A DNA stretch of 64,000 bases from an uncultured Alphaproteobacteria bacterium. GTDB lineage: Bacteria > Pseudomonadota > Alphaproteobacteria > Rs-D84. Of the stretch, positions 5,357 to 58,021 are shown piece after piece (positions within the stretch are counted from its first letter, which is position 1; every line of letters starts with the position of its first letter). The notes below the pieces were generated by a model. The model was not told the DNA's origin and made no database searches. It saw only the letters and a list, made by a program, of their open reading frames with translations. Position numbers and translations under genes: made by a program. The stretch spans positions 39,419 through 103,418 of the forward strand of contig CALXMS010000003.1 of the NCBI GenBank assembly GCA_944389535.1. Reading direction: 5' to 3'.

Positions 5357-6082
5357 ATGACCAAGACGCCGAAATTTTCAAAGCAAATTGAGGAAAATCG
5401 TGAAACGATATCTAAACTGTTATCTGGTGCTGATACAGTCAAACGTTTGAACAATTTTAATTGGTTACGGCACGAAATATCATATACAGAACCAAGAATT
5501 TTATTTTACGTCCCCAGCAAAGAACAACAACCATATTTGGACTATAATTCTATGAAAAATATTGGTGACGCATATGATTATATATTACAAAACCCGAAAA
5601 AAAACATAGATATATATGAAATTTGTAAAATACACAGCACAATATGTACGGGAACGCATATTCAGGGGGGATTATTTAGAACCAGCCCAAAAATAATAGA
5701 AATACAAGTTAATGGCCATCGATTACATGCACCAGACGAAACGCAAATTTTATCGAAGATGACCGAAATTATTTTCAAATTAAACGACCGTAATGTCTGC
5801 GTATTAAAACGCGCATTTCGTATTCATTACGATTTAATTATGTTGCAACCGTTTGATGACTTTAATAAGCGCACCGCACGACTTATTATGAATTGGGTAT
5901 TAATACAGAACGGATACAGACCTATAGTATTTAATCAACCAACGGATAAGCAAAAATATAAAGAAGCAATTACTGCTTGTGCAAATGGTCGACCTAAAGA
6001 ATATATATACTATATGTCATATTGTATGGCTAGAACGCAAAAACAAATCATATCTTTATTGAATAACTCTAAAATGTTATAG
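5357..6082 (+). CDS. Fic/Doc-fold protein with a non-canonical active-site motif, QPFDDFNKRTAR in place of HPFx(D/E)GNGRxxR
   Basis: The layout is Fic-like: HIQGGLFRTSP...VNGHRLHAPDETQILSKMTEII...AFRIHYDLIMLQPFDDFNKRTARLIMNWVLIQNGYRP. This aligns residue-for-residue with the canonical Fic core, which ends in ...IHPFxDGNGRxxRLLxNLxLxxxGYPP. The catalytic His is replaced by Gln, and GNG becomes FNK, which resembles the Doc NKR motif. Confidence 0.7.
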   Translation: MTKTPKFSKQIEENRETISKLLSGADTVKRLNNFNWLRHEISYTEPRILFYVPSKEQQPYLDYNSMKNIGDAYDYILQNPKKNIDIYEICKIHSTICTGTHIQGGLFRTSPKIIEIQVNGHRLHAPDETQILSKMTEIIFKLNDRNVCVLKRAFRIHYDLIMLQPFDDFNKRTARLIMNWVLIQNGYRPIVFNQPTDKQKYKEAITACANGRPKEYIYYMSYCMARTQKQIISLLNNSKML

Positions 6083-6090
6083 GTTTTTAC

Positions 6091-16726: not shown

Positions 16727-16803
16727 AAAAGCAAGAAACTTTTATTTATAAAGTACTTGCTCGACTTTTCTAAAATTTGCTAACATTATTATACATAATA
16801 AGG

Positions 16804-20565: not shown

Positions 20566-20610
20566 ATATATCTCTTTTTTTTATTATAATATCATATAAA
20601 GGAGAAAAAT

Positions 20611-39927: not shown

Positions 39928-40755
39928 TTATTCATCCAAAGCAGCTTCAATTTGTTCTGCAGGAATTGCACCAGGGAACGCTTGTTCACCGATGATCAAG
40001 AATGGCGTACCGCTTATTTCAAAACGCTGTGCCAAATCACGAACGTTTCTCATTTCACGTGCAACAACTTCACCATTCATGTCTTCTTTCAATTTTGCTG
40101 TATCTAATCCAGCTTCTGCAGCCATTTTCATTACATTTGCTTCAATCTTTTCAGCTATTGTAGACTGATCTTCTAAGTCTTCTTGACTATAGAAATCACG
40201 AGTCATTAACATGTTGGTCAATTGAGCAGCTTTTTCTGGATCCTGTAACTTTGCAGCAATAACTGCTTTCGCAGGACCATCAGACAATGGACCATGTATA
40301 GAGAAGTTCTTAATTACTACACGGGTATCATCACGATCTGCTAATACACGTTCAATTTCACCGTGTACACGACGACAATATGGGCAAGAGAAATCAGTCC
40401 ACACATAAATTGTCTTTTTACCTTCACGATTACCCAAAACTGGAGCATCACGCATCATCTGTTCGCCTTCAGAACGAACGAACTTACGAATTTGTTTATT
40501 TTTTTCTGCCTGCTGCTGTTCTTGCATGCGGTTAACCATTTCCTGTATAATTGCTGGATTTACAGCCGTCAGATAAAACGGTGTATACAAACGACACATA
40601 CTGCCAGAAATCAAAATGATAGATATTAATGTTATGCATTTTTTAGCAATGATTTTACTAGCAGATGGTTTTTTCTCATCCCCTTTCGGCAGCAACATAC
40701 CACCAAACAAGAATAAAAGAATACCGACTACTAGAACTAATATTGTCCAAGTCAT
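39928..40755 (-). CDS. Membrane-anchored DsbA-like thiol:disulfide oxidoreductase (thioredoxin fold)
   Basis: There are N-terminal TM segments. The thioredoxin-fold CPYC active site sits in WTDFSCPYCRRVHGE. The C-terminus reads SGTPFLIIGEQAFPGAIPAEQI, like DsbA. Confidence 0.75.
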   Translation of the reverse strand: MTWTILVLVVGILLFLFGGMLLPKGDEKKPSASKIIAKKCITLISIILISGSMCRLYTPFYLTAVNPAIIQEMVNRMQEQQQAEKNKQIRKFVRSEGEQMMRDAPVLGNREGKKTIYVWTDFSCPYCRRVHGEIERVLADRDDTRVVIKNFSIHGPLSDGPAKAVIAAKLQDPEKAAQLTNMLMTRDFYSQEDLEDQSTIAEKIEANVMKMAAEAGLDTAKLKEDMNGEVVAREMRNVRDLAQRFEISGTPFLIIGEQAFPGAIPAEQIEAALDE

Positions 40756-42963: not shown

Positions 42964-43740
42964 ATGACAAATAATTTTCATCGCGCTTTAAATAGAATGG
43001 CGTTATTTACTGCTTTTTTAATTGCGGGTTTAATTTTGTTTTATGATACATTCTTACAAGTCGCCGCTGCCAATGTGTTATTAAACGGCATTATTATCGG
43101 TACGACTATTTTCGGAATAGGTTTATGTTTCGTAGAAATGTTTCGTTTATTACCTGAATATAAATGGGCAAAAGCATATTTTTCTGGCCGTAAAAACGCG
43201 CCCCTACCCCCCAGGTTATTAAGGCCTGTTGCTTTAATATTACGCGCCCGTCCTTTACGTATATCCGCAACCACGTTAAACGGCATGTTAGACATAATTT
43301 TGCTTAGGTTTGAAGATTCCAGAGAATCAATACGTTATATAACTAACACATTAATATTTTTGGGTTTATTGGGTACTTTTTGGGGATTAATTATAACGGT
43401 TGGTGGTTTTGCGAATCTTATAAGCAACCTTAACTTTGCCGACGAATCAGTTCTGACTACAATGCAAAACGGTTTAACTCGCCCACTATCTGGCATGGCA
43501 ACTGCTTTTACAAGTTCTTTAATGGGATTGGCGGGTAGTCTTACCATCGGGTTCTTAGGTTTACAAGTCCAATTGGCGCAAAATGGTATATTTAGGGAAT
43601 TGGAAGATTATCTATCGGCACATACAAGCGTCGCGACGACTGACACAGTAACGACTATTTTACCGCAAATAAATGAAACGACGAACGAATTAAATAAAAA
43701 CGTAAAAGAATTAAAACAAACATTTTCGGAAATTGCCTGA
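42964..43740 (+). CDS. MotA/TolQ/ExbB-family proton-channel protein
   Basis: Four predicted TM helices are present. The family signature reads LIFLGLLGTFWGLIITV, and the C-terminal helix reads AFTSSLMGLAGSLTIG. It is followed directly by a MotB-like gene. Confidence 0.7.
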   Translation: MTNNFHRALNRMALFTAFLIAGLILFYDTFLQVAAANVLLNGIIIGTTIFGIGLCFVEMFRLLPEYKWAKAYFSGRKNAPLPPRLLRPVALILRARPLRISATTLNGMLDIILLRFEDSRESIRYITNTLIFLGLLGTFWGLIITVGGFANLISNLNFADESVLTTMQNGLTRPLSGMATAFTSSLMGLAGSLTIGFLGLQVQLAQNGIFRELEDYLSAHTSVATTDTVTTILPQINETTNELNKNVKELKQTFSEIA

Positions 43741-43770
43741 TAACAATAAAAATCAAGCGAGAGGGAAAAA

Positions 43771-44841
43771 ATGCTAAACATAAGATTTCGTGAAAAGACA
43801 AATACTTGGCCGGCTTTTGTAGACTTGTTCTCAAATCTGGTAATTATATTAATCTTTTTGTTAATCGTATTCGTGTTCTTATGGACTACGACCAGCGTAT
43901 TTAATAAAGATACGGGTGCAAAGACTGTCGCCGATTTGAAACGCACAAATGAAGAACAGGCTCAACGAATCGTACAAATGAGTGCCGACGAAGAAGAAGC
44001 AAAACGTTTGCTGGTCTTAGCACGTGCAGAGCTAGAAAATCTGACGGCAAATAATAACGAATTAAACAACGAGCTGTCACAAATCGACGCCAGTATGGAA
44101 GAGCTAATCGCAGATTATGAAGCAAAGGTTGCAGAATTAACGAATCAACTAAACCAAGCGACATTAGATAAACAGCGTACGGCTGAACTGGAGCAAGAAA
44201 GACGTACTTTACAACAGCAAATGACCGAACAACGTGCATCTTTAGCAGAGCAATTAAGTAAATTACAAGCAGCTTTAGATGCGGCCGAAGAAGAAGCGAA
44301 TCAGAAAGAAATTCAATATGTAGAAATGTCTACACGCTTAAATAAAGCATTAGCCGATAAAGTAGCAGAATTAAATGACGTTGCCAGATATCAATCAGCG
44401 TTTTATAAAGCAATCAAAGACGCTCTTGGAGATGATAACTTTATCAAAACAGAAGGTGATCGTTTCATAATATCAAGCGATATTTTATTTGGCAGCGGAT
44501 CTTATACTTTATCTGAAGAAGGGAAAAATCAATTACGGTTAATCGCAAACGTAATAAAAGATCTAGAAAACAAAATTCCGACAAACGTAGATTGGATAAT
44601 TCGCGTTGACGGTCATACCGATAAAAAGCAGGTTGTTCCGGGTACTCGCGGTTATTCAAATAATATGGAATTATCTTTATTACGCGCCAATTCTGTTGCG
44701 ACAGAATTGGCAAAAGACGGTGTATCCCGTCGTCGCTTAATACCAAGTGGTTTCGGGGACTTACACCCTGTTTCATTAGGTACAGACGCCCAAAGCTTGC
44801 AACAAAATCGTCGCATAGAGCTTCAACTGACCAACAGATAA
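43771..44841 (+). CDS. MotB-like protein with an N-terminal TM or plug carrying a conserved Asp, a long coiled-coil linker and a C-terminal OmpA-like peptidoglycan-binding domain
   Basis: The MotB TM with Asp reads WPAFVDLFSNLVIILIFLL. A ~180-aa Q/E/A/L-rich coiled coil follows. The OmpA-like domain reads ILFGSGSYTLSEEGKNQL...LSLLRANSVATELAKDGV...NRRIELQL. Confidence 0.7.
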   Translation: MLNIRFREKTNTWPAFVDLFSNLVIILIFLLIVFVFLWTTTSVFNKDTGAKTVADLKRTNEEQAQRIVQMSADEEEAKRLLVLARAELENLTANNNELNNELSQIDASMEELIADYEAKVAELTNQLNQATLDKQRTAELEQERRTLQQQMTEQRASLAEQLSKLQAALDAAEEEANQKEIQYVEMSTRLNKALADKVAELNDVARYQSAFYKAIKDALGDDNFIKTEGDRFIISSDILFGSGSYTLSEEGKNQLRLIANVIKDLENKIPTNVDWIIRVDGHTDKKQVVPGTRGYSNNMELSLLRANSVATELAKDGVSRRRLIPSGFGDLHPVSLGTDAQSLQQNRRIELQLTNR

Positions 44842-45259: not shown

Positions 45260-45367
45260 ATATTTTACCCCCTTTGTTTGTTTATATAAATAATAATATC
45301 ATATTTATTCTAATAAATGTCTAGGAATTTATTATTCAAATTAAAAGCCCGTTTAAACGGACTTGCG

Positions 45368-47881
45368 TTACATAACTATATCTTCACAGACCTCTTCTGA
45401 CACGTTAGTCGTACAACTAGTATTGCGATTATTATGAAACCAGCTACTGCTGCCTGTTGTTTTGCAATCTTGAGATGTGGTTTGTGTACAAATATGACAA
45501 GTTCTTGTATCACGACTAAATATTGCTCTAACGGTTTTCGTCATACCGGCATTATCCATACTAGAACCGCCAAGGTAACCACTGTTTGTAAATGTAACAC
45601 CATCTGTTTGCAATACACCTGCCCCACCCTTAGCCAAGTCTTCCGTTGTCAAACCAGAACCAACGTCATAACTAATTGCGTATGGTGGTGTTAACGGCGT
45701 AGACGCAGTAATAGCCCCACCACCAGCGCCACCGTTTTCGGCAATTTTCTGACACATATATTGCGCCAAATCTGTAGAAGCATTCTTTGTTGCTTCAGCA
45801 ATTTCATAATTAAGCTTCGTATTATAGTTATCCTGAGCTTTACGCAACGCAGCCACTGCTATTTGCATTTTTACCTGATTTAATAAATTCGGGAAGCGAC
45901 CAACAGTCGATGCATTTGCCTCACCTGTAATTTGCTCCAAACTGCGCCCACTTACACAATATTGAATTTCAGGGTCGCTTTCTATCATTTCTATTGTGCG
46001 ATTTATTGTACCAGCAATATTATTCAGCTCTTCTTCTATAGAAGAAATTATACCGTCATAATTAGCAACACCTACGTTATTTTCTTTTACTTTCGCAAGG
46101 TATTCTTCAATGCCTATTTCACCCGGTTCCAAAGTAACCGTGTTACCGCTGCCGTCTTCCATTTTAGTCTGACCGCTGGCATCTCCCATCTTGATACTAC
46201 CGAAAGATATCATACCCGTAACGCGATATGTTGTACCATCTTTCTGAGAACGTAAAGACCCCGTACCGATCGTATCATCAGCTGCGAATCTATTACAATC
46301 TGTGGTACTGCCGCAAACCTCTGCCATCTTTTTATCAACGATATTCTGGCACTGTTCCATCATTGCATTATCAATATTCAGATATAATCCCATCAACATA
46401 CTATCTAAATCGTCCATGGAAAAATTAGGGTTATTTGCTTTACATACAACCAAACTATCAATCGGACATATGTCATGAATATAGTTATAATCCATCCCTA
46501 TACAATTTTCAAAGTTAGGACCACAACGAGTATCTGCAGTAAAGCAATCTTTTACTTCTTGGGTACACGCATCAACGCGCATTGCCGCAAGCTTATCTTC
46601 AACGTACCCCCAAATTAAAGGTTCCATTCTTTCACAAGGGTCTATTTCTACCTTACAAAAACTACGCGCCATTTCAGGTCTAGATAAGCAAGCATCCATC
46701 GTTGCAACGCCTTTACCCGCAATATCGTCACGACACGCAGTCTGAATACAGTCAGAAATCGTCGTTAAACAAGATTGACGGAACTTAGATTCTGCCTGTA
46801 TTTCTGCAACCTTTATTGTTGGTGCCGCCTCACGCAGAAAGTTCGGCCAGACCAAATCACGTACAGCAACACACTGATCTAAAACATTTTCACATATTGG
46901 ACGCTTTGTATTTAATATGTTCATCGTAGACGTAGTAATGTCATAAGTATCAACAGTTTCAACTGTCGTCCCGGCAGTACTTGTTGCGGTGTTATTCTGC
47001 ATATTTTCCATCGCAATTGTCGCAACGCAATTTTCCCAATCCTCGCCACAGGCATCATCGGTCTGCATACACTTCTTAAATTCTACCATGCACTGTCCAA
47101 GGTCATACTTATTTGCACTTTCAAAACTTTCTTGTAACGCTGCACGTACTTCAGATTCTGCTGCGGCAAGTTCGTTTTCAGCATTATCACGCTGTTGAGA
47201 TAAAGAATTTTTATACCCCAAACAATCTGATGTTATCTGACGAGAATAAAGCTGCTGTAAAAATACAATATCTCCAGAACAAGATTCTGGAACCTGATTC
47301 AAACATAAATTATTAGCCGCGTTATACAATTCGCTGCCGATCATATCTGCCATATCCGCCACAGTACTTTGTAACTCTGCTGAATCATCTTCATAAATAC
47401 TGTTATTATTAAATATTGCCAATAAGTCTGCACGCTTTTGAGCTTTCTGCTTTTCTTCTGTTAACTGCCCCGATGCCAAAATATTACCATCAGCGTCATA
47501 TTGACGAGTACCAGTAAAAACTATATCTGCATTAGCGCCAGCTTTAACACGCTCAACCTCTTCTGTACGAAGACGATTCGCTTCGTCCAGTATAGACTGA
47601 ATAGACGCCATTTCTTGATTATATTCTATTATATTATCACTGCATGTGCATGCACCACCGCTGGCATTATCAGTAATACAAAACTGATCCATGCAACCAA
47701 AATACGCATCGTAACACGCCTGATCATATAAACCAGTTGCTTCAATTTTTGTTCTTACTGTCGTTCCCTGTTGAATCGCGGATTGACGAGAATTCTTACT
47801 GGTAGTAAGAGCATAAGAGTTTGTAACAACCCCAACCACCAAATAAGTAAATAACGAAACAAACATAATTTTATTTCTCAT
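45368..47881 (-). CDS. Large secreted cysteine-rich protein, member 2 of the paralogous family
   Basis: The signal peptide is MRNKIMFVSLFTYLVVGVVTNSYA. The SD GGGGGA lies 8 nt upstream, and the ORF is open to 47899. The family signature reads CYDAYFGCMDQFCITDNASGGACTCSDN. It shares CENVLDQCVAVRD and CGxxFENC blocks with member 3. The C-terminus reads ...VCEDIVM. Confidence 0.8.
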   Translation of the reverse strand: MRNKIMFVSLFTYLVVGVVTNSYALTTSKNSRQSAIQQGTTVRTKIEATGLYDQACYDAYFGCMDQFCITDNASGGACTCSDNIIEYNQEMASIQSILDEANRLRTEEVERVKAGANADIVFTGTRQYDADGNILASGQLTEEKQKAQKRADLLAIFNNNSIYEDDSAELQSTVADMADMIGSELYNAANNLCLNQVPESCSGDIVFLQQLYSRQITSDCLGYKNSLSQQRDNAENELAAAESEVRAALQESFESANKYDLGQCMVEFKKCMQTDDACGEDWENCVATIAMENMQNNTATSTAGTTVETVDTYDITTSTMNILNTKRPICENVLDQCVAVRDLVWPNFLREAAPTIKVAEIQAESKFRQSCLTTISDCIQTACRDDIAGKGVATMDACLSRPEMARSFCKVEIDPCERMEPLIWGYVEDKLAAMRVDACTQEVKDCFTADTRCGPNFENCIGMDYNYIHDICPIDSLVVCKANNPNFSMDDLDSMLMGLYLNIDNAMMEQCQNIVDKKMAEVCGSTTDCNRFAADDTIGTGSLRSQKDGTTYRVTGMISFGSIKMGDASGQTKMEDGSGNTVTLEPGEIGIEEYLAKVKENNVGVANYDGIISSIEEELNNIAGTINRTIEMIESDPEIQYCVSGRSLEQITGEANASTVGRFPNLLNQVKMQIAVAALRKAQDNYNTKLNYEIAEATKNASTDLAQYMCQKIAENGGAGGGAITASTPLTPPYAISYDVGSGLTTEDLAKGGAGVLQTDGVTFTNSGYLGGSSMDNAGMTKTVRAIFSRDTRTCHICTQTTSQDCKTTGSSSWFHNNRNTSCTTNVSEEVCEDIVM

Positions 47882-47923
47882 CACTTTATCCCCCGCCATG
47901 CCATAAAAGACGGCATATAAACC

Positions 47924-50050
47924 TTACATATTTATATCTTCACAACTTTCGATTTCTTGACAGAACTCTTGTTCTCCTCCGGCACTACGCCCAGCAAAGA
48001 AACCACCGACACCACCGACGATTGCACCAATTGCAGTCCCCCAACCCGGAGATACCATCGTACCAGCAGACGCACCCGCAGCAAGCCCCCCCGCAGCCCC
48101 CTGTAATCCAGCGGTACCCTTTGATTGCCCCCCGGTTTCACATACTTGTTGCATACGACAAACGTGACAATTACGCAACGCCGGTTCAAAAGCAACACTG
48201 CGAATATAACTATAGTTTTTACTTGATTTATCAGGTGTTTCAACTTGATAAGTATTATAACAGTTCTGCTCTGCCGCTTCTAAATCCTGCTGACGCGATA
48301 ATTCTGCAATTTTAGATTCCAACTCACGCATAGCACGATTTTCTGCGCTTATCTGCGCAATCATTTTTGCGCTATTAAACACACTATCACCTAAACTTTC
48401 ACGATCTGACGGTTTCTGACTATCTTGACATGCTGCAACAGTCTTGTCTTGTTCAAACTGTACGAAAAATTCATTTACAGCGCTTTCTGTATTGGCACGA
48501 ACACTTTCTCGCAAAGCCGCTAATTCTTCTTGCGTTTCAGGTACAGCAACAAGAGAAGTAATTTGTGTATCCGTTGTCAAACATGACATATCAGTTCCAC
48601 AAACGTTACCAAGTTGTTCACTGAAGTAATTTAAACACCCCTGTAACATTTGATAATCCATTTGTAACATTGCCGCCTGAACTATAATATCAAACTGACT
48701 TTCATTCTTACAAGACGGGAACATACTTTGTGGACACATAGCAGAAATCTCTATTGCACTTTTACCGACGCATTCCGGTGCAGTAAAGTTTTCGCCGCAT
48801 CTATCACGCAAACACTGGTCGACGTCATTCTGACAAAATTGCGTACGTAGATACCCCAATTTATCATTAACAACAGTCTTAATTCCCGGTATCATTTCTT
48901 CACATTCGTCAATTACAGGGCAAATTCCAGCCGCAACGTTTACATCTGTTAAACATGCAGAATTAGTTTCTGTTGAACAACCGTCTTCCAGACACAACTG
49001 AATTCTTGCCAAACATGTTGCTCTAGCGTTTTTATCGGCATATTTTGCGGCATCAGCTAAAATGCTTACCGCTTCGTCTTCCCAGTCTGCTAACACATAT
49101 TCACGAACCGCCATACACTGATCCAAAACGTTTTCACACGCATTTGCACGACGCGCCAACAAATCGGCATCCAAGCAATTTTCAAAATTTACACCACAAC
49201 CACCTTTATCAGCAATACAAGAACGATACGCCAACAAACATTCACCGCGGTTGTATTTATTCGTCGTATCCAACATTTCTAAACGCGCCTGACGAACCGC
49301 GGCCTCCGCAGTACGTTTATTAGATTCTGCAATTGCTTTCTGATCGTTCAAATAAGATTCAAAATTTTTACAATCTTGAACTATTTGACGCGCATACAAA
49401 ACCTCTTCCATTTCTGCGCTACTGCCACATGCCGCCAACCTATCAGCACAATATTCTGACGCCATTGCATATAACGGATCACCTATATCATTATCAGTAC
49501 CTAAACTTGCCTCTTCTTCGGTACCAGAATTTATCCAATCCGCAAAACTTATACCAGATATACTAGAACTTTTCTTTGCCTCTTCGCTTTCACCGAACAC
49601 CAGTCGAGCCTGTGCCCCCAACTGTTCACGTTCAACGCCTTCTGTATAAAGCAAATCAGCCTCTTCCTGAATTTTCTGAATCTCTTGTATCAAAGATTTT
49701 GACTGATTAATGTTTGAAGAACATGCACACCTACTACCTTCTGACTCATCCAAAAGACAAAATTCGTCCATGCAAGCACGATAAGCATCACGACACGTCT
49801 GTGAAGATCCGCTTTCATCGCTACCAGAAGAATCCCCAGTATCTGTTGAAGACGAACCACCATTACCAGGTTTTATATTTAATGTAGGCATTGACGTTCC
49901 AGAATCAAGATTTGGGGACATGTTTACAGAATGCACAGCAGCCTGAGACATCCTGCTGACGCCGACGCGCACAGTAGAATCATCTCTTGTTGCGGCACCA
50001 GCAAAACTTGGTAAAAGAAATATTAAACCTAAAAAAATTCCTAGTTTCAT
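47924..50050 (-). CDS. Large secreted cysteine-rich protein, member 3 of the paralogous family, in tandem with member 2
   Basis: The signal peptide is MKLGIFLGLIFLLPSFAGA, with the SD GGAAGGGA upstream. The family signature reads CRDAYRACMDEFCLLDESEGSRCACSSN. Shared blocks are CENVLDQCMAVRE and CGVNFENCLD. A Gly/Ala-rich hydrophobic stretch sits near the C-terminus. It ends ...SCEDINM. It lies 24 nt upstream of member 2 on the same strand. Confidence 0.8.
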   Translation of the reverse strand: MKLGIFLGLIFLLPSFAGAATRDDSTVRVGVSRMSQAAVHSVNMSPNLDSGTSMPTLNIKPGNGGSSSTDTGDSSGSDESGSSQTCRDAYRACMDEFCLLDESEGSRCACSSNINQSKSLIQEIQKIQEEADLLYTEGVEREQLGAQARLVFGESEEAKKSSSISGISFADWINSGTEEEASLGTDNDIGDPLYAMASEYCADRLAACGSSAEMEEVLYARQIVQDCKNFESYLNDQKAIAESNKRTAEAAVRQARLEMLDTTNKYNRGECLLAYRSCIADKGGCGVNFENCLDADLLARRANACENVLDQCMAVREYVLADWEDEAVSILADAAKYADKNARATCLARIQLCLEDGCSTETNSACLTDVNVAAGICPVIDECEEMIPGIKTVVNDKLGYLRTQFCQNDVDQCLRDRCGENFTAPECVGKSAIEISAMCPQSMFPSCKNESQFDIIVQAAMLQMDYQMLQGCLNYFSEQLGNVCGTDMSCLTTDTQITSLVAVPETQEELAALRESVRANTESAVNEFFVQFEQDKTVAACQDSQKPSDRESLGDSVFNSAKMIAQISAENRAMRELESKIAELSRQQDLEAAEQNCYNTYQVETPDKSSKNYSYIRSVAFEPALRNCHVCRMQQVCETGGQSKGTAGLQGAAGGLAAGASAGTMVSPGWGTAIGAIVGGVGGFFAGRSAGGEQEFCQEIESCEDINM

Positions 50051-50194
50051 AAGTCCCTTCCTACGTTATACGTTATATATAATTTTATCAAATGAGCCCC
50101 CCATGTGCAAGCAGATAAAAACAACTTGCTTTTTTTTATGTAAAATAATATCATAAAATCCAGAATTTTTCTAAGTAAAAACAGAGGAAAATAT

Positions 50195-50449
50195 ATGGCA
50201 AAAGATGACGTTATTGTTTTCAGCGGCGTTGTAGAAGATAAACTACCTAACACCATGTTTCGCGTAAAACTGGAAAACGGTCACGAAATATTAGCAACTG
50301 TATGCGGTAAAATGCGCAAAGCTAGAATTTGGGTTAACGTCGGAGAACACGTTCGCGTTGAAATGACACCGTATGACTTAGATAAGGGTCGCATAACATT
50401 TGTTGAACGTGCAAGATCTTCAAATGAAACTGCGTCAGAAAACAATTAA
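50195..50449 (+). CDS. infA: Translation initiation factor IF-1 with a short C-terminal extension
   Basis: [67 protein letters not shown] is near-identical in pattern to E. coli IF-1. Confidence 0.92.
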
Positions 50450-50450
50450 T

Positions 50451-50478
50451 AAAAATCTCGCTTTGGCGAGATTTTTTG
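50451..50478 (+). terminator. Rho-independent terminator after infA
   Basis: The stem atctcgc/gcgagat has a tttg loop and is followed by TTTTTT. Confidence 0.7.
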
Positions 50479-50559
50479 ATAAAAAACCTTATTAAATCAT
50501 TAAATATTACTTCCCATAAAAATATATTTTTGTTATCATTTACCTATATATAAATAAGT

Positions 50560-53046
50560 ATGAGGAATGTTTTATTCTTTATTATTGCGTGTTTAATCGG
50601 CATCGCAGATGTCGATGCTGCAGTTCGTGGAACAGAATCCGTAAATCGCCAATCAGCAGACAATGCTGCTACGAATACCCTTGTTGCCAGAACGACACGT
50701 ACCCCGACAACTAATTCTGTAAGGACCTCGTCTGAAACCGCTATAACAAGAAATAATACGAATACAGTTACAAGATCATCAAATGGTACGGTAACCGCAC
50801 GCAGTGCAAACGATCAGGTCGCAACTGCGCGCAACGGTACGACGACGGCACGCACTGCTAAGACAACGGTAACTTCAAGTTCTCCGCGAAATGCAACGAA
50901 TAATAATACAATCGTACGAAGCGCTACAAATACTGAAAGAACGGCTACGTCGGCAAACGCTCGTACAGCAAGGGCAACAACCGTCGCTTCATCAACGGTA
51001 ACGAATACTTTTGGTACAGGGTATAACACATGCAGGAATGCTTACTTCACATGTATGGACCAGTTCTGTGCAACGGCTAATGACACTTATAGACGTTGCG
51101 TATGTTCTTCCAGACTTACTGACGTGCAAGAAAGAGAAAGAGCTCTTTCTCAAACGTCGGGGCAATTACAGGATTTTAAAAATTTGAACATAGAGGTAAT
51201 CCCTAAAACTGCAGAAGAAGTCAATGCTATGCTTACCGCCAGCGAAGGAGAACTGGCAATAATGGAAGATACATCATCTTCTTCTCAAGAATTGGCCGGC
51301 ATAAGAGAAGTTCTATCATCATCTAAGAACCAAGCATTGTCAACCTTAGGAACCCTAGATATAGCCGGTGACATAAATCAAATATGGGCAACAACAGATT
51401 TAGCCTCGGGGCAAAACATAGCAAATCTTACAGGTGAGGCATTATATAACGCTGTACACTCGCAATGTGTTAATCTGATATCAGATCAATGTCCATCAAC
51501 ATCGACACTAAATATGGTTGTATCAGCGTATGGCATGTATATTGAAAACGATTGTTCTACACTATTAAACGCTTTGGATAGTAAACTAGTTCAAGCAAAT
51601 AGCAGCATTCGCGAAACAGAAAGAGAGATGAATTTGGCGCGACTAGAAAACTATAATGCTCATAATTCTACATCAATCAATGATTGCATTGCACAAGTAC
51701 GAAAAGACATTACAGCAGATACTGCATGCGGAACAGATTATGTACATTGCTTAGATATAACAGGTCTTTATTTAAATAGAGACACCGGGGAACCGATTTA
51801 TTCACAGAACTTTTACCAACTTGGTAATCAAATATCTTTGGACGGAGACGTGTTAACTAACTCAACCAACCGTCTTATTGTCGCCGAACTAAATAATAAG
51901 CGTATATATGCTGAAAGAGGGTTGGAAACGTGTCAGGATATCGCAGACGAAGTCTGGGATGAATTTGTTCGTCAAGCAATAGTAGAAATTTATCAGGGAC
52001 AGCAGTCAAAAATCCGCGACGTAAAGAACGAGTGTCTTGACGTTGTAAATGCATGTTACGACGAGCAAAGCGAATCGTTAAAAGATTTTAGTAATGTTAA
52101 AGAAGAATTATTATTAGGTTCACGTCTTGAATTATCAGAAGAATTATGTGAAGAAAAACTATACGCCTGCAGTAATTTATATGGCGACCCTAATGGGGAT
52201 GGTTTGGAATTATTATTAACGGCAATGCATGACATCACAGATCAAAAAATTGCTGCAGAATGCAAATCTCTTCTTGAAGCATACGCTTTAGATATGTGTA
52301 CAGTTCCTAGCAATGATAGTTTACATGCTTATCCATATGGATGTCGCGTTTATGCACCTGGTGACGCAATATATGCATCCAAAGCTTACTGTAATCAATT
52401 ACAATGGACTAACCCTACTACTTCCAATCCGTCAACCCCAGGAGGAGGAGGAGAAGAAGAACCAACAACAGGTTATGTATGTCCATCTTATATAAAATAC
52501 ACTTCCTGCGCACCTGGTTATTACATGGCGACCCTAAATATAATGCAAGAATGGGAATACAACGGAACACCTGTGGCAGGTAATAAATGTAAACCATGTC
52601 CTTCTAATGCAATCTGCGAAGGTGGCACTTCGGAACCATTAATAATCGCCGCACCAGAAGTTGATGAAGATAAAGATTGTGGCACAGATTATGCGGGCAG
52701 TTTATATCAAAAGATGGTAAAATATTCTACTCAGGTATGCGTTCGCCCATCTGACTACGATCAAATAACTGCTGGTAATAAAGAAATACCGTCAAACGTA
52801 TTACAAGATGTAAATATAGTAATGGATACAATAAGAGTAGAAATGGCAACAGTATTATCACAAGAGTGTGATAGATTAGGTGGCACATGGGTTGACACCC
52901 AATGGGTTGACCAAGATTATAATGACAAACACGATAAAACTGGGCACATACTATTTAAATATTTTTATGATGAAACCGGTTCTAACACCAAATGGGGATA
53001 TTGTGCAGATCCAGAAAGTGTATCAACGGCAACGTTGGGTGTATAA
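50560..53046 (+). CDS. Large secreted cysteine-rich protein, member 4 of the paralogous family, with an N-terminal T/R/S/N-rich low-complexity region
   Basis: The signal-peptide-like N-terminus is MRNVLFFIIACLIGIADVDAA. A ~150-aa T/R/N/A-rich region follows (TARSANDQVATARNGTTTARTAK...). The signature reads YFTCMDQFCATANDTYRRCVCSS. It shares ACGTDYVHCLD and ETCQDIADEVWDEF with member 1. Confidence 0.8.
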   Translation: MRNVLFFIIACLIGIADVDAAVRGTESVNRQSADNAATNTLVARTTRTPTTNSVRTSSETAITRNNTNTVTRSSNGTVTARSANDQVATARNGTTTARTAKTTVTSSSPRNATNNNTIVRSATNTERTATSANARTARATTVASSTVTNTFGTGYNTCRNAYFTCMDQFCATANDTYRRCVCSSRLTDVQERERALSQTSGQLQDFKNLNIEVIPKTAEEVNAMLTASEGELAIMEDTSSSSQELAGIREVLSSSKNQALSTLGTLDIAGDINQIWATTDLASGQNIANLTGEALYNAVHSQCVNLISDQCPSTSTLNMVVSAYGMYIENDCSTLLNALDSKLVQANSSIRETEREMNLARLENYNAHNSTSINDCIAQVRKDITADTACGTDYVHCLDITGLYLNRDTGEPIYSQNFYQLGNQISLDGDVLTNSTNRLIVAELNNKRIYAERGLETCQDIADEVWDEFVRQAIVEIYQGQQSKIRDVKNECLDVVNACYDEQSESLKDFSNVKEELLLGSRLELSEELCEEKLYACSNLYGDPNGDGLELLLTAMHDITDQKIAAECKSLLEAYALDMCTVPSNDSLHAYPYGCRVYAPGDAIYASKAYCNQLQWTNPTTSNPSTPGGGGEEEPTTGYVCPSYIKYTSCAPGYYMATLNIMQEWEYNGTPVAGNKCKPCPSNAICEGGTSEPLIIAAPEVDEDKDCGTDYAGSLYQKMVKYSTQVCVRPSDYDQITAGNKEIPSNVLQDVNIVMDTIRVEMATVLSQECDRLGGTWVDTQWVDQDYNDKHDKTGHILFKYFYDETGSNTKWGYCADPESVSTATLGV

Positions 53047-53107
53047 AAATATTGTCGTCTTGCCTTAAAAAGTTTTTTTTGTTAGAATTTAATAACAAGA
53101 GAAAAAT

Positions 53108-53815
53108 ATGAAAAACGCCTTTACTATTTCAATCTGTTGTTTCAGTTTAATATCGGCAGCGTCAGCCGCAGCTATTCCATGGTGGGAACAAGCAACTGTA
53201 TGTAAATTAGATACAACAAAATGCTATCCTTCAATGGGTACAGGTTATGCCAGCGAACTTTGGGATAGTGTTACTGGATGCTGGGGTATGAAATATATCT
53301 GCCCAGAAGCATTATTATCTGACGAGTATATGCCTGTTCCTATGGGGCGTAAAGAAATATCTGCCGGGACAAATATAAATAAAGATTTTAATACAGATAT
53401 ATTAAACGGCGATTGCTTTGGGGTACGAAAAACCACAAACAATGGCGCTATGGCTTCTATAAACGGAGAATATATACCAGTATGGTGTAACGGTATTTTA
53501 AATGACGTTGACGAATATCTAGAAAATGGTGAAATAACATACGGGGCTCAACCAACATGTCAAGATTTGGCAGATTATGGATATGTGGCGACCGTAAATG
53601 GTCAATGTTACGGGAAATACTATGATCCATATAATTATTATATTGAATGTGATGGCTCATCCATTACACCAAGTCGCATAATAATATTAAACGGTGCAGA
53701 TTATATGGCATCATCTGACAGTTCACCATCTGATGAAAGTGCGGCATCAAAGTTATTTGATTCAATGCAATCTATATCTGAATCACAGCGTAAAATATAC
53801 TTTACAAACGATTAA
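53108..53815 (+). CDS. Small secreted cysteine-rich protein (235 aa) that shares one motif with the large Cys-rich family
   Basis: The signal peptide is MKNAFTISICCFSLISAASAAA. There are 14 Cys. TCQDLADYGY resembles (N/T)CQDIAD(Y/E)VWDEF of members 1 and 4. It lies immediately downstream of member 4. Confidence 0.6.
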   Translation: MKNAFTISICCFSLISAASAAAIPWWEQATVCKLDTTKCYPSMGTGYASELWDSVTGCWGMKYICPEALLSDEYMPVPMGRKEISAGTNINKDFNTDILNGDCFGVRKTTNNGAMASINGEYIPVWCNGILNDVDEYLENGEITYGAQPTCQDLADYGYVATVNGQCYGKYYDPYNYYIECDGSSITPSRIIILNGADYMASSDSSPSDESAASKLFDSMQSISESQRKIYFTND

Positions 53816-53843
53816 AAAAATCCCGTTTTTACGGGATTTTTTT
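53814..53843 (+). terminator. Rho-independent bidirectional terminator between the small Cys-rich gene and the Pmp-like gene
   Basis: The stem atcccgt/acgggat has a tttt loop. An A-run and a T-run flank it. Confidence 0.7.
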
Positions 53844-53855
53844 ATGCATTATTTT

Positions 53856-56135
53856 TTAAAACTTATATCTAAATTTTAACATTCCGGTTTGTGATGTATA
53901 ATCTTTGTGTATGTCTAAATCATAATTTACCGAAAACACCCAAGCATTATACATTGCGCTTAAACCTACTCCGACTTCACCGCCAAATCTGGATAAATTT
54001 TCACTTGTTACTTTATACGAAGCCAGTCCTGGAACCGTTACTATTGCAACTGCTTCGTCGGATATAAAATCATAAGTGGCAGCGGCACGTATTTCTGGGC
54101 GAAGTTTTAACCGTCCTTCTGCTTCGATCACAAAACCATATTTTAAACCAGCCACTCCTGTAAGATAGTTTGTATTCGTATCAGAAATATCAGCTATACC
54201 ATTATTATATGCGTCTTGATTTATATGTAAATAACGTATAGCAACTTCTGGTATTATACCAGACGATAATTCATAACCTGTAACCATCTGACCGCCAAAA
54301 GAATCAACGTCATATTCAGGATTAATTGTAAGGTTCTCGAATGCAGTTGCCATTTCCGTATAATCAGCCATAGTATATGTTAAAGTAGCACCAACATACC
54401 ATTTTGAAGGTTTATACTGACCGTACAAGAACAAACTATTACTGGATATTTCTGTATCTCGAGTATTTGTCTCTACTTCTGTTTCGTTATACGCATACCC
54501 TATACCAATTGTATATTTATCTTTGATCAAAGTATCAAAACCAACAGATATACCATTCGTATCACCTGTAAATTTATCGGAATACTTTGTTCTATTCATC
54601 AAGCCTTGGGCCCATACTCCATAATCTATCTTTGGCCAATCACCGCCACTGCGTCCGATACCAGAAATACTGCTCATACGATCTGACGTCACAGATAAAA
54701 CCTGATTATTTACAGCCGTAGCAACTGAATGTACAATAGGTTTGTCTTCATTTCTAAGTTTAGCAGATTCTTGTTCTACATAATCTATATCACCCTCTTT
54801 CAAAGCATTTTGAGCAATTAATGCCGCTGAATTAACGAAAGAATCAGAACTATTTGCTAATCCGACTAATACCAACGCCGCATCAGAAGAAATATTTGTA
54901 TTATTTGAAATATCTGAAACGTCTTTGGTTTCAACAACAATATTCGTGCCGTCTATAGATACATTATATATCAAATCTGCATATTTTATATTATTGATAT
55001 CAATTGCCGCCCCGAAATCGTACTTACCTACGGCCCCCAGTGTTAAATCTAGCACTGCATTTTCACCGATACTGATTTCATCAATATCTATGGCTGCAAA
55101 ACTAGATGGATTTAAAATCGAAGCTGCTAACGTACCATCCAGGACTAATTTTCCTTGTTCCAAAACTGTGGAACCAATATTTAAAACGGCATTTTCGGCA
55201 ATGGTAAGCGTTCCTGTTCCTTTAATTCCACCGTCCATTATGGTCATACCATCAGCAATTATTATATTACCAGAATTATAAATATCGTTTGCGGATTCTT
55301 CGGCAACGTTTCCAGAAAACGTATTATTTCCGTTAAACGTTATCTTTCCTTGATTATAAATTGCACCGCCTAAACTTCCGGCTTTATTTCCTGTAAACGA
55401 TGAATCAGATATCGATTCGATAACACCAGAATTTGAAATTGCACCGCCCTGCTTTACTTCACCCATCAACGCATAGTTTGAATCAAACGTTGCATTGCTA
55501 ATCAAACTTATAAGACCATATTCATCATTACTTATCGCACCACCATCACTAGCTATATTAGTTCTAAATGCAACAGTTTCTATGCTGTTAACTGTCCCAG
55601 AATTAAGCAGCACACCACCTTTATTAACACCGGCAGAATTTTCAATAAACGAAGCATTGGCAATTTTACTAATGTTTCCCCCACCCGTACTACCTGTTGA
55701 ATTAGAATTGTAAATTACCCCTCCTGCTTCCCCTTGGTTGCGTTGAAACAAAGCGTGTGAAATTTCGCTTATTTTTCCGGAATCTGCATTATAAATGACA
55801 CCGCCCTCCATGGCAGTATTTGACCCGAAGACAGAGTTACCGCTTAAACTTGTAATGGAAACTGTTCCTTCATTATAAATTACCCCGCCCATATTTCCGG
55901 TATTGTTTTTAAACGACGCAGGACCGTTAACATTAAGCGTTCCACTGACTGATGCAACAGCACCATTTAAGTCCTCGTTTTGATATTTTGTATAACTTGC
56001 ATCTTTATCTATGTTATAAGTCTCACCTTCCGCAACAGTTATTTGTTCTGATGCGTTTGCCGCAGTCCATATAGACATAATAAATAAAAAAGGGAAAATT
56101 TTTAATGAATAAAAAGAAAATTCACTGGCAGACAT
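53856..56135 (-). CDS. Autotransporter with polymorphic-membrane-protein (Pmp)-like GGA(I/L/V) and FxxN passenger repeats and a C-terminal beta-barrel
   Basis: The protein is 759 aa with a signal peptide. There are many GGVIYN, GGAISN and GGAIYN units alternating with FKNN, FQRN, FIEN, FRTN, FDSN and FTGN. The ~270-aa C-terminus has alternating amphipathic strands and ends ...MLKFRYKF. Confidence 0.8.
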   Translation of the reverse strand: MSASEFSFYSLKIFPFLFIMSIWTAANASEQITVAEGETYNIDKDASYTKYQNEDLNGAVASVSGTLNVNGPASFKNNTGNMGGVIYNEGTVSITSLSGNSVFGSNTAMEGGVIYNADSGKISEISHALFQRNQGEAGGVIYNSNSTGSTGGGNISKIANASFIENSAGVNKGGVLLNSGTVNSIETVAFRTNIASDGGAISNDEYGLISLISNATFDSNYALMGEVKQGGAISNSGVIESISDSSFTGNKAGSLGGAIYNQGKITFNGNNTFSGNVAEESANDIYNSGNIIIADGMTIMDGGIKGTGTLTIAENAVLNIGSTVLEQGKLVLDGTLAASILNPSSFAAIDIDEISIGENAVLDLTLGAVGKYDFGAAIDINNIKYADLIYNVSIDGTNIVVETKDVSDISNNTNISSDAALVLVGLANSSDSFVNSAALIAQNALKEGDIDYVEQESAKLRNEDKPIVHSVATAVNNQVLSVTSDRMSSISGIGRSGGDWPKIDYGVWAQGLMNRTKYSDKFTGDTNGISVGFDTLIKDKYTIGIGYAYNETEVETNTRDTEISSNSLFLYGQYKPSKWYVGATLTYTMADYTEMATAFENLTINPEYDVDSFGGQMVTGYELSSGIIPEVAIRYLHINQDAYNNGIADISDTNTNYLTGVAGLKYGFVIEAEGRLKLRPEIRAAATYDFISDEAVAIVTVPGLASYKVTSENLSRFGGEVGVGLSAMYNAWVFSVNYDLDIHKDYTSQTGMLKFRYKF

Positions 56136-56537: not shown

Positions 56538-57446
56538 ATGCCACTTAAAAGCACTAAGCTTCATCGTGCCAAGCGATTAAAAAATGACGAATTCTATACC
56601 CAATACCAAGATATTGAATCTGAATGCTCTAATTACTTAGAGCATTTTTTTAATAAAGTCATATATTGCAATTGCGATACCGCTGATAGTAATTTCGTTA
56701 AATACTTCAAAAATCTTAAAAGCCAAGGATTAATAAAAGACATATTATGGTCTGGTGGGTTAAATGGGCTGGACTTCCGCAGCAATGCATCCATAGAACT
56801 ATTAAAGCAGTCGGACATAGTTGTCACCAATCCGCCGTTTTCTTTATTTATTCCGTATATCAACCAGTTGGTTAAATACGACAAGCAATTTTTAATTATG
56901 GGCAACAGAAATGCCGTCAGTTACAGGGAAGTTTTTGAATTAATCAAAGACAATAAACTCTGGATTGGCACTATACCATTTGGGGCAAGTATGTTGTTTG
57001 ATGTGCCAGAACCTGAAAAACTATTAATACAAGGCAAAGAAAACATAACCTATGCCATTAAAGACGGAATTATAAAGGCAAGAGTTCCAGCGACTTGGTT
57101 TACAAACATCCATCATAAAAATATGCCAAAAGAAATCCCATTGGTTAAACAATATACTGGTAATGAAGCCGCCTACCCAAAATACGATAACTTTGATGCA
57201 ATTGAAGTTAAATGCAAAAGAAATATTCCATACGACTATATGGGTATAATGGGTGTTCCTGTAACCTTTATAGACAGATATAACCCACAGCAGTTTGAAA
57301 TATTGGGTATGGACAAAGATTTTACTTATGACAGCAAAAGTGTCCGCATAGGCAGTAAAAACCTTTATACACGGATATTTATAAGGCGAAAATGCAATAT
57401 GTCAGAAGCATCCAATGACAACTGTCTATTAAAAACCGCCGTTTAA
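56538..57446 (+). CDS. Solitary N6-adenine DNA methyltransferase candidate, EcoRI-methylase-like family, with an NPPF motif IV
   Basis: The N-terminus reads ...KNDEFYTQYQDIESE. The catalytic motif reads DIVVTNPPFS. No restriction-endonuclease partner with cytoplasmic features lies adjacent. Confidence 0.55.
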   Translation: MPLKSTKLHRAKRLKNDEFYTQYQDIESECSNYLEHFFNKVIYCNCDTADSNFVKYFKNLKSQGLIKDILWSGGLNGLDFRSNASIELLKQSDIVVTNPPFSLFIPYINQLVKYDKQFLIMGNRNAVSYREVFELIKDNKLWIGTIPFGASMLFDVPEPEKLLIQGKENITYAIKDGIIKARVPATWFTNIHHKNMPKEIPLVKQYTGNEAAYPKYDNFDAIEVKCKRNIPYDYMGIMGVPVTFIDRYNPQQFEILGMDKDFTYDSKSVRIGSKNLYTRIFIRRKCNMSEASNDNCLLKTAV

Positions 57447-58021
57447 TATAAATTCCACAGGTAATTAAACTGATTGGTAAATACTTTATTGGAAGATTGT
57501 TGAAAGAAAGTGCAGTTTTCTGCATTTGATTTACTGGCACTTTCTGTCCAATTATAAGAACCATTTTCTATATTCTTGCCGTCAAATATTGCGAATTTGT
57601 GGTGCATAATCTTATGCTTTACATTTGTTTTGACGGCTATTCCAGCATCAATCAGTTTAGATACCAGCGAATATTTACCCTTAGATTGTAATCTGTCTGT
57701 AATCACCCTGATTTTAGCCCCACGGTCTTTGGCAGTAATTAAAGCATCATACTTCCACTCAATATCGCCATATTCTGTAATTTGATTATCACCGATATAT
57801 ACATATTCTGTTTCAAAAGTCGCCTCAGCAGAGCCAAATAACCCGACAAAAGATTGCGACCCCATAATTCTGTTATTGCTATGCTTACCGTATAAAGAAT
57901 CTCGTTCTGTAAAGGTTTTAACAGCAACCCCTGAATAATCCGCCAGGTCTTTAATTTCAAACCCAAAGCAATAAATGGGCAAGCATAAGACGAACAGAAA
58001 AGCCAGTATTAGTTTTTTCAT
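57443..58021 (-). CDS. Secreted phospholipase-D-family (Nuc-like) endonuclease
   Basis: The signal peptide is MKKLILAFLFVLCLPIYCFG. The single HKD motif reads HHKFAIFDGKNIENGSYNWTESA. The size (about 170 aa mature) matches the Nuc subfamily. Confidence 0.7.
   Translation of the reverse strand: MKKLILAFLFVLCLPIYCFGFEIKDLADYSGVAVKTFTERDSLYGKHSNNRIMGSQSFVGLFGSAEATFETEYVYIGDNQITEYGDIEWKYDALITAKDRGAKIRVITDRLQSKGKYSLVSKLIDAGIAVKTNVKHKIMHHKFAIFDGKNIENGSYNWTESASKSNAENCTFFQQSSNKVFTNQFNYLWNLY

Follow-up and report, generated by a model that had tools for sequence, protein, structure and literature searches.

Why would a bacterium with a genome of less than 1 Mb give over around 11 kb of it to four paralogous proteins of approximately 700–1080 amino acids (aa) and a small partner? 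This question is raised by a stretch of DNA from an uncultured Alphaproteobacteria bacterium of the Rs-D84 lineage (64,000 nucleotides (nt); GenBank assembly GCA_944389535.1, contig CALXMS010000003.1, positions 39,419 to 103,418 of the forward strand; hereafter the window), in which a cluster of genes for cysteine-rich proteins flanks infA. The original prediction, made from the sequence alone, had recognised three large paralogs, here termed M2, M3 and M4, together with a 235-aa protein, and had suggested that the family diversifies and serves as surface antigens, adhesins or effectors. Here, we add a fourth paralog, M1, which corresponds to member 1 in the numbering of that prediction, and report that the four proteins are ancient paralogs, each a 1:1 orthologue in conserved synteny, whose cores are under purifying selection of housekeeping strength while their ends evolve fast. 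It is highly probable that M1–M4 constitute an exported, disulfide-bonded helical family, and we tentatively favour for them the role of a lineage-specific structural scaffold of the cell envelope with variable heads.

Four paralogs with a common core and signature

An all-against-all BLASTP comparison of every open reading frame (ORF) of at least 200 aa in the window aligned M2 and M3 with 30% identity over 478 aa (E 1e-55 to 1e-57), and linked M4 to both M2 (E 5e-21) and M3 (E 1e-11 to 1e-12). The closest paralog of M1 was M4, with 32% identity and E values of 1e-61 to 1e-65. Identity among the paralogs is only 20–32%, and a core of about 450 aa with 16 family-invariant cysteines is common to all of them. 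The hidden Markov model (HMM) of the family matched exactly four proteins of the window, M1–M4, of which M1 scored 568 bits. The grouping of the three large proteins into one family thus held beyond the short motif, and was extended by the fourth paralog.

The signature of the family reads C-x6-C-M-D-x-F-C-x9-C-x-C-S. As predicted, a six-frame translation of the window contains its strict form, C.[DN]AY..CMD.FC, three times and no more, once each in M2 (47678–47716, minus strand), in M3 (49757–49795, minus strand; CRDAYRACMDEFC) and in M4 (51031–51069, plus strand), and the equivalent site of M1 (17446–17484, plus strand) carries the variant CREVYYSCMDEFC. In an alignment of 119 diverse members, most of them only about 20% identical to M3, the C, M, D, F and C columns of the signature were invariant or nearly so.

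The further conserved cysteine blocks that had been proposed for all three proteins fared less uniformly. The block CENVLDQC[VM]AVR is specific to the M2/M3 pair, and CG(V/P)NFENC turned out to lie at non-equivalent positions: residues 285–292 of M3 align with CGEDWENC of M2, and CGPNFENC of M2 aligns with CGENFTAPEC of M3. This displacement is explained by an internal duplication of a module of approximately 40 aa, C-x6-C-x4-6-C-G-x-NF-x-C, in which residues 271–312 of M3 match residues 406–447 (hhalign probability 84%); hhalign of the other segment pairs revealed no further internal repeat. The number of cysteines had been overestimated at about 40–60 per protein, the actual counts being 36 in M2, 36 in M3, 30 in M4 and 43 in M1.

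The gene coordinates agreed with the arrangement described before, with M2 and M3 as tandem neighbours and M4 divergent across infA (50195–50449, plus strand) and followed by the gene for the 235-aa protein. M3 (47924–50050, minus strand) encodes 708 aa. M2 (45368–47899, minus strand; conserved C-terminus ...CEDIVM) comprises 843 aa when read from ATG 47899 and 837 aa from ATG 47881, which is the likelier start because a GGGGA Shine-Dalgarno-like sequence lies 8 nt upstream of it. Consequently, the predicted M3–M2 gap of 24 nt applies to ATG 47899 and becomes 42 nt for ATG 47881, the start that had been assumed. M4 (50560–53046, plus strand) encodes 828 aa, with 29 of its 30 cysteines in the mature part, and the small gene (53108–53815, plus strand) encodes the exported, cysteine-rich 235-aa protein with 11 cysteines. 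M1 lies apart from the cluster, as a 1078-aa ORF read from TTG (16777–20013, plus strand), and its probable true start is ATG 16804 (MKGFKLLFAGC...), since the orthologues begin with MKG[FL]K.

A hairpin search of the window placed terminator-like structures directly 3' of the M2 stop codon (45345–45364, minus strand), 3' of infA (50451–50476) and, as a bidirectional hairpin, between the small gene and a convergent Pmp-like autotransporter gene (53813–53844). The same search found no terminator between M3 and M2 and none in the 61 nt that separate M4 from the small gene. Since hairpins mark the ends and are missing in between, the genes are predicted to form two operons, M3–M2 and M4–small, which diverge around infA, with M1 as a solitary gene.

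Distribution of the family

The genome scan comprised one genome per GTDB species and found at least 545 stretches with relatives. The best 80 of these all came from gut metagenome-assembled genomes (MAGs), were labelled Candidatus Enterousia, uncultured Alphaproteobacteria, Rickettsiales or proteobacterium, apart from two evidently mislabelled bins, and included two closed chromosomes of 959 kb and 717 kb. L034 (CAVGNU010000008.1, 'Bacteroides fragilis') and L063 (OZ246409.1, 'uncultured Muribaculaceae', a chromosome of 716,531 bp) both have typical Enterousia-type M1 loci with 68–76% identity, and their names are probably taxonomic mislabels. In an exhaustive HMMER search, the core profile of the four paralogs collected 861 clusters at 50% identity with E ≤ 1e-3, of which 545 had E ≤ 1e-30, and where family members had a public name it was 'hypothetical protein'. 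As far as the genome scan reaches, the family is restricted to Enterousia-like/Rs-D84 gut alphaproteobacterial MAGs.

With regard to known relatives, Pfam, NCBIfam, PADLOC and PHROGs scans of M1–M4 and the small protein gave nothing meaningful, only sub-threshold glycine-zipper and tape-measure Gly-rich matches. The best profile match of the core among PDB sequences, an insect pheromone-binding protein, had an E value of only 0.06 and was rejected as not credible. These searches bear out the earlier impression that the signature belongs to no characterised family. Any Pfam domain at all was present in just 3 of 44 long members, one each with Ephrin_rec_like (1.9e-8), Flg_new and DUF7631. Similarly, we found no description of the family in the literature on Enterousia, Rs-D84 and cysteine-rich proteins. 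M1–M4 thus belong to a large, well-defined family of unannotated proteins, unusual in how it is conserved and found in a lineage that is itself enigmatic.

The lineage holds still more of this kind of protein, namely at least one further orthogroup outside the window (P0230 type, with the C-terminus EWY..C..GG.Y..G.CY) and an extra M2-like paralog in the related locus L086. Short exported cysteine-rich proteins also lie near family members in related genomes, at 20570–21442 in L086 (290 aa, 20 Cys) and at 9479–10699 in L085 (406 aa, 23 Cys); the family HMM detected no extra member in the rest of the window or in related loci, the short cysteine-rich ORFs of L085 and L086 included. The window itself belongs to Candidatus Enterousia, in the order Rs-D84. 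Enterousia and this order have genomes of approximately 0.75–1.0 Mb, are fermentative, are devoid of respiratory chains and of most biosynthesis, and have been proposed to follow a partner-dependent lifestyle (PMC12306168).

Probable export and disulfide formation

By sequence inspection, the N-termini of M1–M4 and of most family representatives have the layout expected of Sec signal peptides, in which a basic residue and a hydrophobic stretch lead to a small-x-small site, which supports the signal peptides predicted for the three large proteins and suggests one in M1 too. Cysteines account for 3.6–5.1% of M1–M4, versus around 1% in most other ORFs of the window, and their spacing is not random, given that neighbouring cysteines in the heptad-like arrangement C-x6-C (spacing 7) were observed 28 times, versus 4.7 ± 2.1 times in shuffled sequences. 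In M3 numbering, the cysteines invariant across the 119-member alignment are 86, 93, 98, 108, 110, 201, 208, 227, 271, 285, 292, 312, 346, 353, 377 and 383; four more cysteine columns are conserved to about 95%, and D95, Y219 and N264 are invariant as well.

An even number of cysteines is an established signature of disulfide bonding in exported proteins. The count in the mature part, which ranges from 21 to 70, was even in 102 of the 119 members (binomial p = 6e-16, calculated on sequences that are related and not independent). Furthermore, a gene approximately 5 kb from the cluster (39928–40755, minus strand) encodes a membrane-anchored, DsbA-like thiol oxidoreductase with a CPYC motif (FSCPYCRR; Pfam DSBA 3.8e-19, Thioredoxin_4 2.8e-17), and stays near the cluster in L001, L090 and L091. 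Its product may be the catalyst that forms the disulfides of the family, which we read as genomic context and not as proof of a partnership. Based on even parity, the i/i+7 spacing on long helices and this neighbour, we infer that the cysteines form intramolecular staples between neighbouring helices. Signal peptides, parity, heptad-like spacing and the CPYC neighbour are all in line with the exported, disulfide-rich fold that the original prediction had proposed.

Predicted structure and domain anatomy

AlphaFold2 (AF2) models were obtained for M3 (119-sequence alignment; mean predicted local distance difference test (pLDDT) 75.7, predicted template modelling score (pTM) 0.43) and for M4 (95-sequence alignment; mean pLDDT 77.2, pTM 0.54). 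In both, the region past the signal peptide is disordered (residues 13–78 of M3 and 15–148 of M4) and is followed by an all-helical core with a pLDDT of approximately 90 and helices of up to 53–56 residues. The core fold is accordingly predicted as a rod of spectrin-like helical bundles, with no specific known relative.

The ends distinguish the paralogs. M4 consists of a signal peptide, a disordered basic tail rich in T, N, S and R (aa 21–150), the helical core (153–606) and an alpha/beta cysteine-rich C-terminal domain (650–828) that AF2 models with confidence, and in which residues 675–692 give a weak DUF7631/furin-like CxxC match in Pfam (E 0.066). M1 is built alike: its signal peptide precedes a T/S/R-rich basic tail of about 180 aa (25% T, 18% S and 12% R, with a net charge of +10), after which come the conserved helical core (aa 215–670; 17419–18786) and a cysteine-rich C-terminal region (aa 671–1078). 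Taken together, the tails of M1 and M4 (130–180 aa) contain 25–28% Thr, 12–18% Ser and 12% Arg, have almost no acidic residues and carry a net charge of +10/+11. The mature part of many M1-type members opens with a D-rich stretch, followed by ARAAxR. M1-type proteins conserve a cysteine at position 11 of the signal peptide (LFAGC-like), which is too near the N-terminus to belong to a normal lipobox.

The C-terminus of M3 was modelled as a three-stranded beta-sheet (613–638 and 696–707) broken by a Gly-rich segment, residues 641–692 (47975–48130, minus strand; GLQGAAGGLAAGASAGTMVSPGWGTAIGAIVGGVGGFFAG). This Gly/Ala-rich, glycine-zipper-like hairpin lies between the beta strands, with the terminal CEDINM after it; all 120 M3 orthologues possess the segment, and 118 of them terminate in CEDINM. 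Residues 651–690 gave the only Pfam matches of M3, with E values of 0.016 (Gly-zipper_Omp) and 0.076. M2-type proteins have the flanking element C-H-[IV]-C...C-E-D-I-x-M in common with M3, but not the zipper, and some related members carry other hydrophobic segments rich in Ala, Gly and Val near the C-terminus. We propose that residues 641–692 of M3 may act as a membrane anchor or oligomerisation element.

Slow cores, fast ends and conserved synteny

Orthologues of M1 were found in 80 species-level genomes, where they occupy the context Pom-like porin/M1/PolA. The median identity of the M1 core to the window was 74.9%, close to the 73.7% of the neighbouring DNA polymerase I (PolA), while the N-terminal tail and the C-terminal region reached 39.5% and 33.5%, respectively. 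M2 follows M3 in tandem also in L086 (57% identity) and L088 (51% identity), and M4 precedes the small gene in L086, L090 and L091 as well. Conservation of both gene pairs, and of the BOF gene that comes after M2, extends to relatives with approximately 50–65% protein identity.

Rates of nonsynonymous substitution (dN) were measured against the relative L090 (around 90% identity). Values for M2 (0.075), M3 (0.078) and the cores (0.058–0.064, with 0.064 for that of M4) were similar to those for PGK (0.069) and ribosomal protein L9 (0.073). DsbA was slower (0.044), and RNase HII (0.128), BOF (0.154), the small partner (0.21), RecO (0.25) and the Pmp autotransporter (0.28) were faster, as were the N-terminal tail (0.53) and the C-terminal head (0.22) of M4. 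For most genes, the relatives compared are so distant that synonymous sites have reached saturation, which leaves only dN and a few values of omega (dN/dS) usable; where dS was unsaturated, omega for M3 was about 0.02–0.05. Fast evolution is therefore limited to the N-terminal tails and to the C-terminal regions of M1 and M4.

In the paralogs of the window we found neither tandem repeats nor cassettes or gene-conversion tracts, and DNA similarity between them is limited to one conserved patch of 43 nt. Moreover, the C-terminal divergence grows with the distance between species, which speaks against a swapping of cassettes. The original prediction had deduced a diversifying surface-antigen family from multiplicity and divergence; 1:1 orthology, synteny, cores as slow as PGK, L9 and PolA, and the lack of repeats or cassettes do not sustain it.

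The 235-aa partner and the envelope neighbourhood

The small protein had been taken for a relative of the large ones, which our comparisons do not support, as BLASTP against M1–M4 gave no match below E = 1, and neither phmmer nor the family HMM gave any match. It represents a lineage-restricted, conserved family of its own, with 149 homologues, nearly all of 232–240 aa. It has its own signal peptide, and its gene lies directly 3' of the M4 orthologue in other genomes. The 235-aa protein thus appears, from gene order, to be a conserved operon partner of M4 and not a member of the family. Nine mature cysteines, an odd number, were counted in 92 of 93 homologues. One intermolecular disulfide between M4 and its partner would fit the odd counts of 29 and 9, but M4-type representatives showed mixed parity, and we leave this as an idea.

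The gene convergent with the M4–small operon (53856–56135, minus strand) encodes a Pmp-like autotransporter (Autotransporter domain 5e-31, Chlam_PMP repeat 2e-6) and is present as two tandem copies in L091. Divergent from M1 is a gene for a 493-aa protein (15027–16508, minus strand) with a match to the Protochlamydia outer membrane protein (Pom) family (2e-10), and this adjacency recurs in 69 of 80 related genomes. Genes for envelope and peptidoglycan functions are abundant in the window (SLT, M23, S41/Ctp, SurA-like, OmpA/MotB-like).

A proposed structural role in the cell envelope

How might such proteins work? Each of them would be exported by Sec, as their visible signal peptides suggest, and, once in the oxidising periplasm, would take the shape of an elongated rod, made up of the three-helix-bundle-like segments predicted by AF2. 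Cysteines in C-x6-C spacing on adjacent helices would become intramolecular disulfide staples, to judge from parity, spacing and the DsbA-like neighbour, and the rod core, which shows purifying selection of housekeeping strength, would be the load-bearing or assembly part. M3 and M2, probably co-transcribed, have a C-terminal beta element ending in CEDI[NV]M in common, and the glycine-zipper hairpin that M3 alone possesses would most likely anchor or oligomerise the M3/M2 pair in a membrane, probably the outer one. M1 and M4 would add the basic, disordered T/S/R-rich N-terminal tail and the fast-evolving, cysteine-rich C-terminal head, with M4 probably co-transcribed with its exported 235-aa partner. 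The M1 and M4 heads are the likeliest outward-facing parts and might touch the partner cell or the host of this metabolically dependent bacterium.

A function of M1–M4 as structural envelope proteins is therefore what we infer, and as an account of a lineage-specific scaffold with variable heads it seems plausible to us, somewhat short of an even chance. Counted in its favour are the C-terminal Ephrin_rec_like or Flg_new modules of a few members, which are typical of extracellular proteins, the envelope neighbourhood formed by the Pom-like porin beside M1 and the Pmp-like autotransporter beside the M4–small operon, and the partner-dependent lifestyle that has been proposed for Rs-D84 (PMC12306168).

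Several observations weigh against this account. No outer-membrane translocation route was identified for such large, folded proteins. The odd mature cysteine count of M4 (29) departs from the parity of the family, and the host is a fermentative gut anaerobe reported to be without respiratory chains (PMC12306168), so that re-oxidation of DsbA poses a problem. The overall shape, rod or compact, is uncertain because the pTM values are only 0.43–0.54. The glycine-zipper scores of M3 lie below the Pfam cut-offs (15.6 bits versus 25 and 13.2 bits versus 28.9, for PF13488/PF13441), and the pLDDT is below 50 across that segment. In addition, a periplasmic role would agree with the slow evolution of M2 and M3, but any essential function would do so equally well.

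In the main alternative, M1–M4 would be a strictly periplasmic, regulatory or chaperone-like scaffold that, by analogy with Legionella EnhC, may bind peptidoglycan-remodelling enzymes or outer-membrane proteins and would not build a coat or a structure for attachment. We regard it as unlikely. It would account for Sec export with no recognisable outer-membrane translocator, for the very strong conservation of M2 and M3 and for a window rich in envelope and peptidoglycan genes, and the conserved hydrophobic-x-hydrophobic C-terminal end (I-N-M) may be a candidate PDZ ligand. However, there is no Sel1 or tetratricopeptide repeat (TPR) signature, a purely periplasmic housekeeping factor would not be expected to have heads that evolve as fast as those of M1 and M4, nor the modules of extracellular type that a few members carry, and four paralogs plus a partner would be a costly regulator for a genome of less than 1 Mb. 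The diversifying family of the original prediction, with surface antigens, adhesins or effectors whose number would stem from recent expansion and from variation under immune, phage or host pressure, we now judge improbable. The paralogs are only 20–32% identical, each with 1:1 orthologues in fixed synteny, the pace of the cores, and of M2 and M3 along their entire length, matches that of PGK, L9 and PolA (omega around 0.02–0.05), repeats, cassettes and gene-conversion tracts are lacking, and the C-termini diverge with species distance, contrary to what cassette swapping would give; this outweighs the presence of four paralogs within 64 kb and of 861 clusters at 50% identity, the Pmp-like neighbour, rare fusions to Ephrin_rec_like or Flg_new modules, and fast tails and M1/M4 C-termini (median identity 33–40% versus 75% in the core; dN 0.22–0.53).

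A quite different view of the cysteines, that they bind metals or take part in redox buffering or sensing (Zn, Fe-S or thiol chemistry) instead of forming structural disulfides, seems to us very improbable. Even parity in 102 of 119 members and the DsbA-like gene are at odds with it, the conserved columns hold no His or Asp partners except D95, and i/i+7 spacing on long helices suits staples between helices and not tetrahedral metal sites. The signal peptides are moreover of the Sec and not the Tat type, which makes cofactor-loaded export unlikely. What nevertheless recommends it is the high cysteine density with clustered motifs such as C-x6-C-x4-C-x9-C-x-C, in an anaerobic host without a respiratory chain, where disulfide formation is not obviously supported (PMC12306168). 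Hardly credible in our judgement are polymorphic toxin-like or otherwise secreted effectors, in which a conserved delivery module would precede a variable C-terminal payload and the 235-aa gene would provide immunity or a chaperone. The succession of a conserved N-terminal and central region and a variable C-terminus resembles such a layout, as does the small gene conserved directly downstream of M4; yet no toxin, Rhs, PT-TG or secretion-system domain was found, the C-termini diverge gradually, without swapping, and are largely homologous along their whole length in orthologues, the small protein has its own signal peptide and a constant length and is lacking beside M1, M2 and M3, and the genes stand among housekeeping genes in stable synteny.

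Comparison with known systems

Helicobacter HcpA–E and Legionella EnhC and LpnE are exported Sel1-like-repeat proteins composed of disulfide-bridged helix pairs, of which EnhC is large and periplasmic. M1–M4 are predicted to resemble them in Sec export, in an all-alpha architecture of repeated helix pairs or bundles and in belonging to a host-associated Gram-negative bacterium, and the enriched C-x6-C pairs and the even parity may reflect a similar bridging of helices by regularly spaced cysteines. They differ in that neither Sel1 (PF08238) nor TPR matches were found in M1–M4 by hmmscan against Pfam (E ≤ 1), and the alpha/alpha superhelix fold of the HcpB/HcpC type was not recovered in them.

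In chlamydiae, the cysteine-rich proteins OmcB and OmcA form, together with MOMP and the Pmps, a disulfide-cross-linked outer membrane complex. The present locus is reminiscent of it in combining several cysteine-rich exported proteins, probably of the envelope and including a small partner, in a dependent bacterium with a reduced genome, with a Pmp-like autotransporter and a Pom-like porin nearby. In contrast to OmcB and OmcA, M1–M4 have a core predicted to be all-alpha, and their even parity points mainly to intramolecular disulfides, the sole hint of cross-links between molecules, as in an envelope lattice, being the odd counts of M4 and its partner; no match to the Chlamydia outer membrane protein families of Pfam or NCBIfam was found in M1–M4 or the 235-aa protein. 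Any likeness to the chlamydial complex would, we speculate, be functional only.

For the predicted core, the rods of spectrin repeats or three-helix bundles (spectrin, plectin, alpha-actinin and the bacterial EzrA) come near, and the Pfam Spectrin model, with its three-helix-bundle repeats of about 106 aa, did not match M1–M4. Residues 641–692 of M3 recall the glycine-zipper outer-membrane lipoproteins (SlyB/Pcp and the Rickettsia 17-kDa antigen; PF13488), being likewise a GxxxG-rich hairpin of two segments. M3 departs from these lipoproteins in lacking a lipobox, since its signal peptide, MKLGIFLGLIFLLPSFAGA followed by A, contains no cysteine, and in having the zipper at the C-terminus of a 708-aa protein. 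A type V autotransporter translocator was not found in M1–M4, the Autotransporter domain being confined to the neighbour at 53856–56135 and the AF2 models of M3 and M4 being without a barrel, and no polymorphic toxin or delivery domain was found in M1–M4 and the long family members. The nearest analogues, Hcp/EnhC and the chlamydial cysteine-rich proteins, are thus functional and not homologous ones, and the defining feature of none of the families considered was clearly recognised in M1–M4.

Wider implications of a possible disulfide-stapled scaffold

Beyond the scaffold itself, the family and the 235-aa partner, possibly with the porin and the autotransporter, might build an undescribed, disulfide-stapled, spectrin-like helical lattice or attachment organelle, an extension that we rate as distinctly unlikely. 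If true, it would keep the cell mechanically stable away from its host or partner and allow it to dock to the partner cell. The lattice would then be a counterpart, in function, of the cysteine-rich outer membrane complex of chlamydiae, but with a new fold that is unrelated to it.

Candidatus Enterousia/Rs-D84 is a widespread uncultured lineage of the gut of humans, poultry, ruminants and rodents, which seems to depend on other cells. Because their cores are as conserved as replication and glycolysis genes, and because some 11 kb are invested in them, M1–M4 are prime candidates for its envelope or attachment machinery. The family is new and easily searched for by the diagnostic CxxAYxxCMDxFC...CxCS followed by heptad-spaced cysteines, and merits an entry in Pfam as a domain of unknown function (DUF) even if its function should prove mundane. 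It also raises the physiological question of how a fermentative anaerobe, reportedly without respiratory chains, keeps up extensive disulfide formation.

Other genes of the window

Next to the cluster, at 42964–44841 (plus strand), a MotA/ExbB/TolQ-like membrane protein of 258 aa (no Pfam match; ZorA-like, 5e-14, in PADLOC) is followed by a MotB/OmpA-like protein with a coiled coil of about 200 aa (ZorB-like, 7e-23). This stator-like pair adjoins BOF–M2–M3 in the close relatives L001, L090 and L091, not in L086, and occurs in a lineage reported to be without flagella.

A 301-aa leucine-rich repeat (LRR) protein (2827–3732, minus strand) has 18 cysteines, one per repeat, no signal peptide, and LRRs similar to those of SspH2 and internalin (3e-14, 3e-9); its sequence suggests an effector, such as a bacterium living with a host or partner might use. 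At 5357–7017 (plus strand), a gene for a Fic/DOC domain protein (241 aa) precedes one for an APH-like phosphotransferase (308 aa). A 658-aa ORF without a Pfam match (28223–30199, minus strand) lies in the stretch of lowest GC content in the window (0.306 at 28–30 kb versus approximately 0.38 elsewhere).

With regard to DNA modification, an EcoRI-type adenine methyltransferase (56538–57446, plus strand) adjoins a PLD-like (PLDc_2) protein with a signal peptide (57443–58021, minus strand), and a second DNA methylase, with a RAMA domain, is located at 34545–35645. Finally, a choloylglycine hydrolase family protein (60174–61268, plus strand; CBAH 8e-65), with a homologue near the cluster in L090, is possibly a bile-salt hydrolase, which fits the gut habitat.

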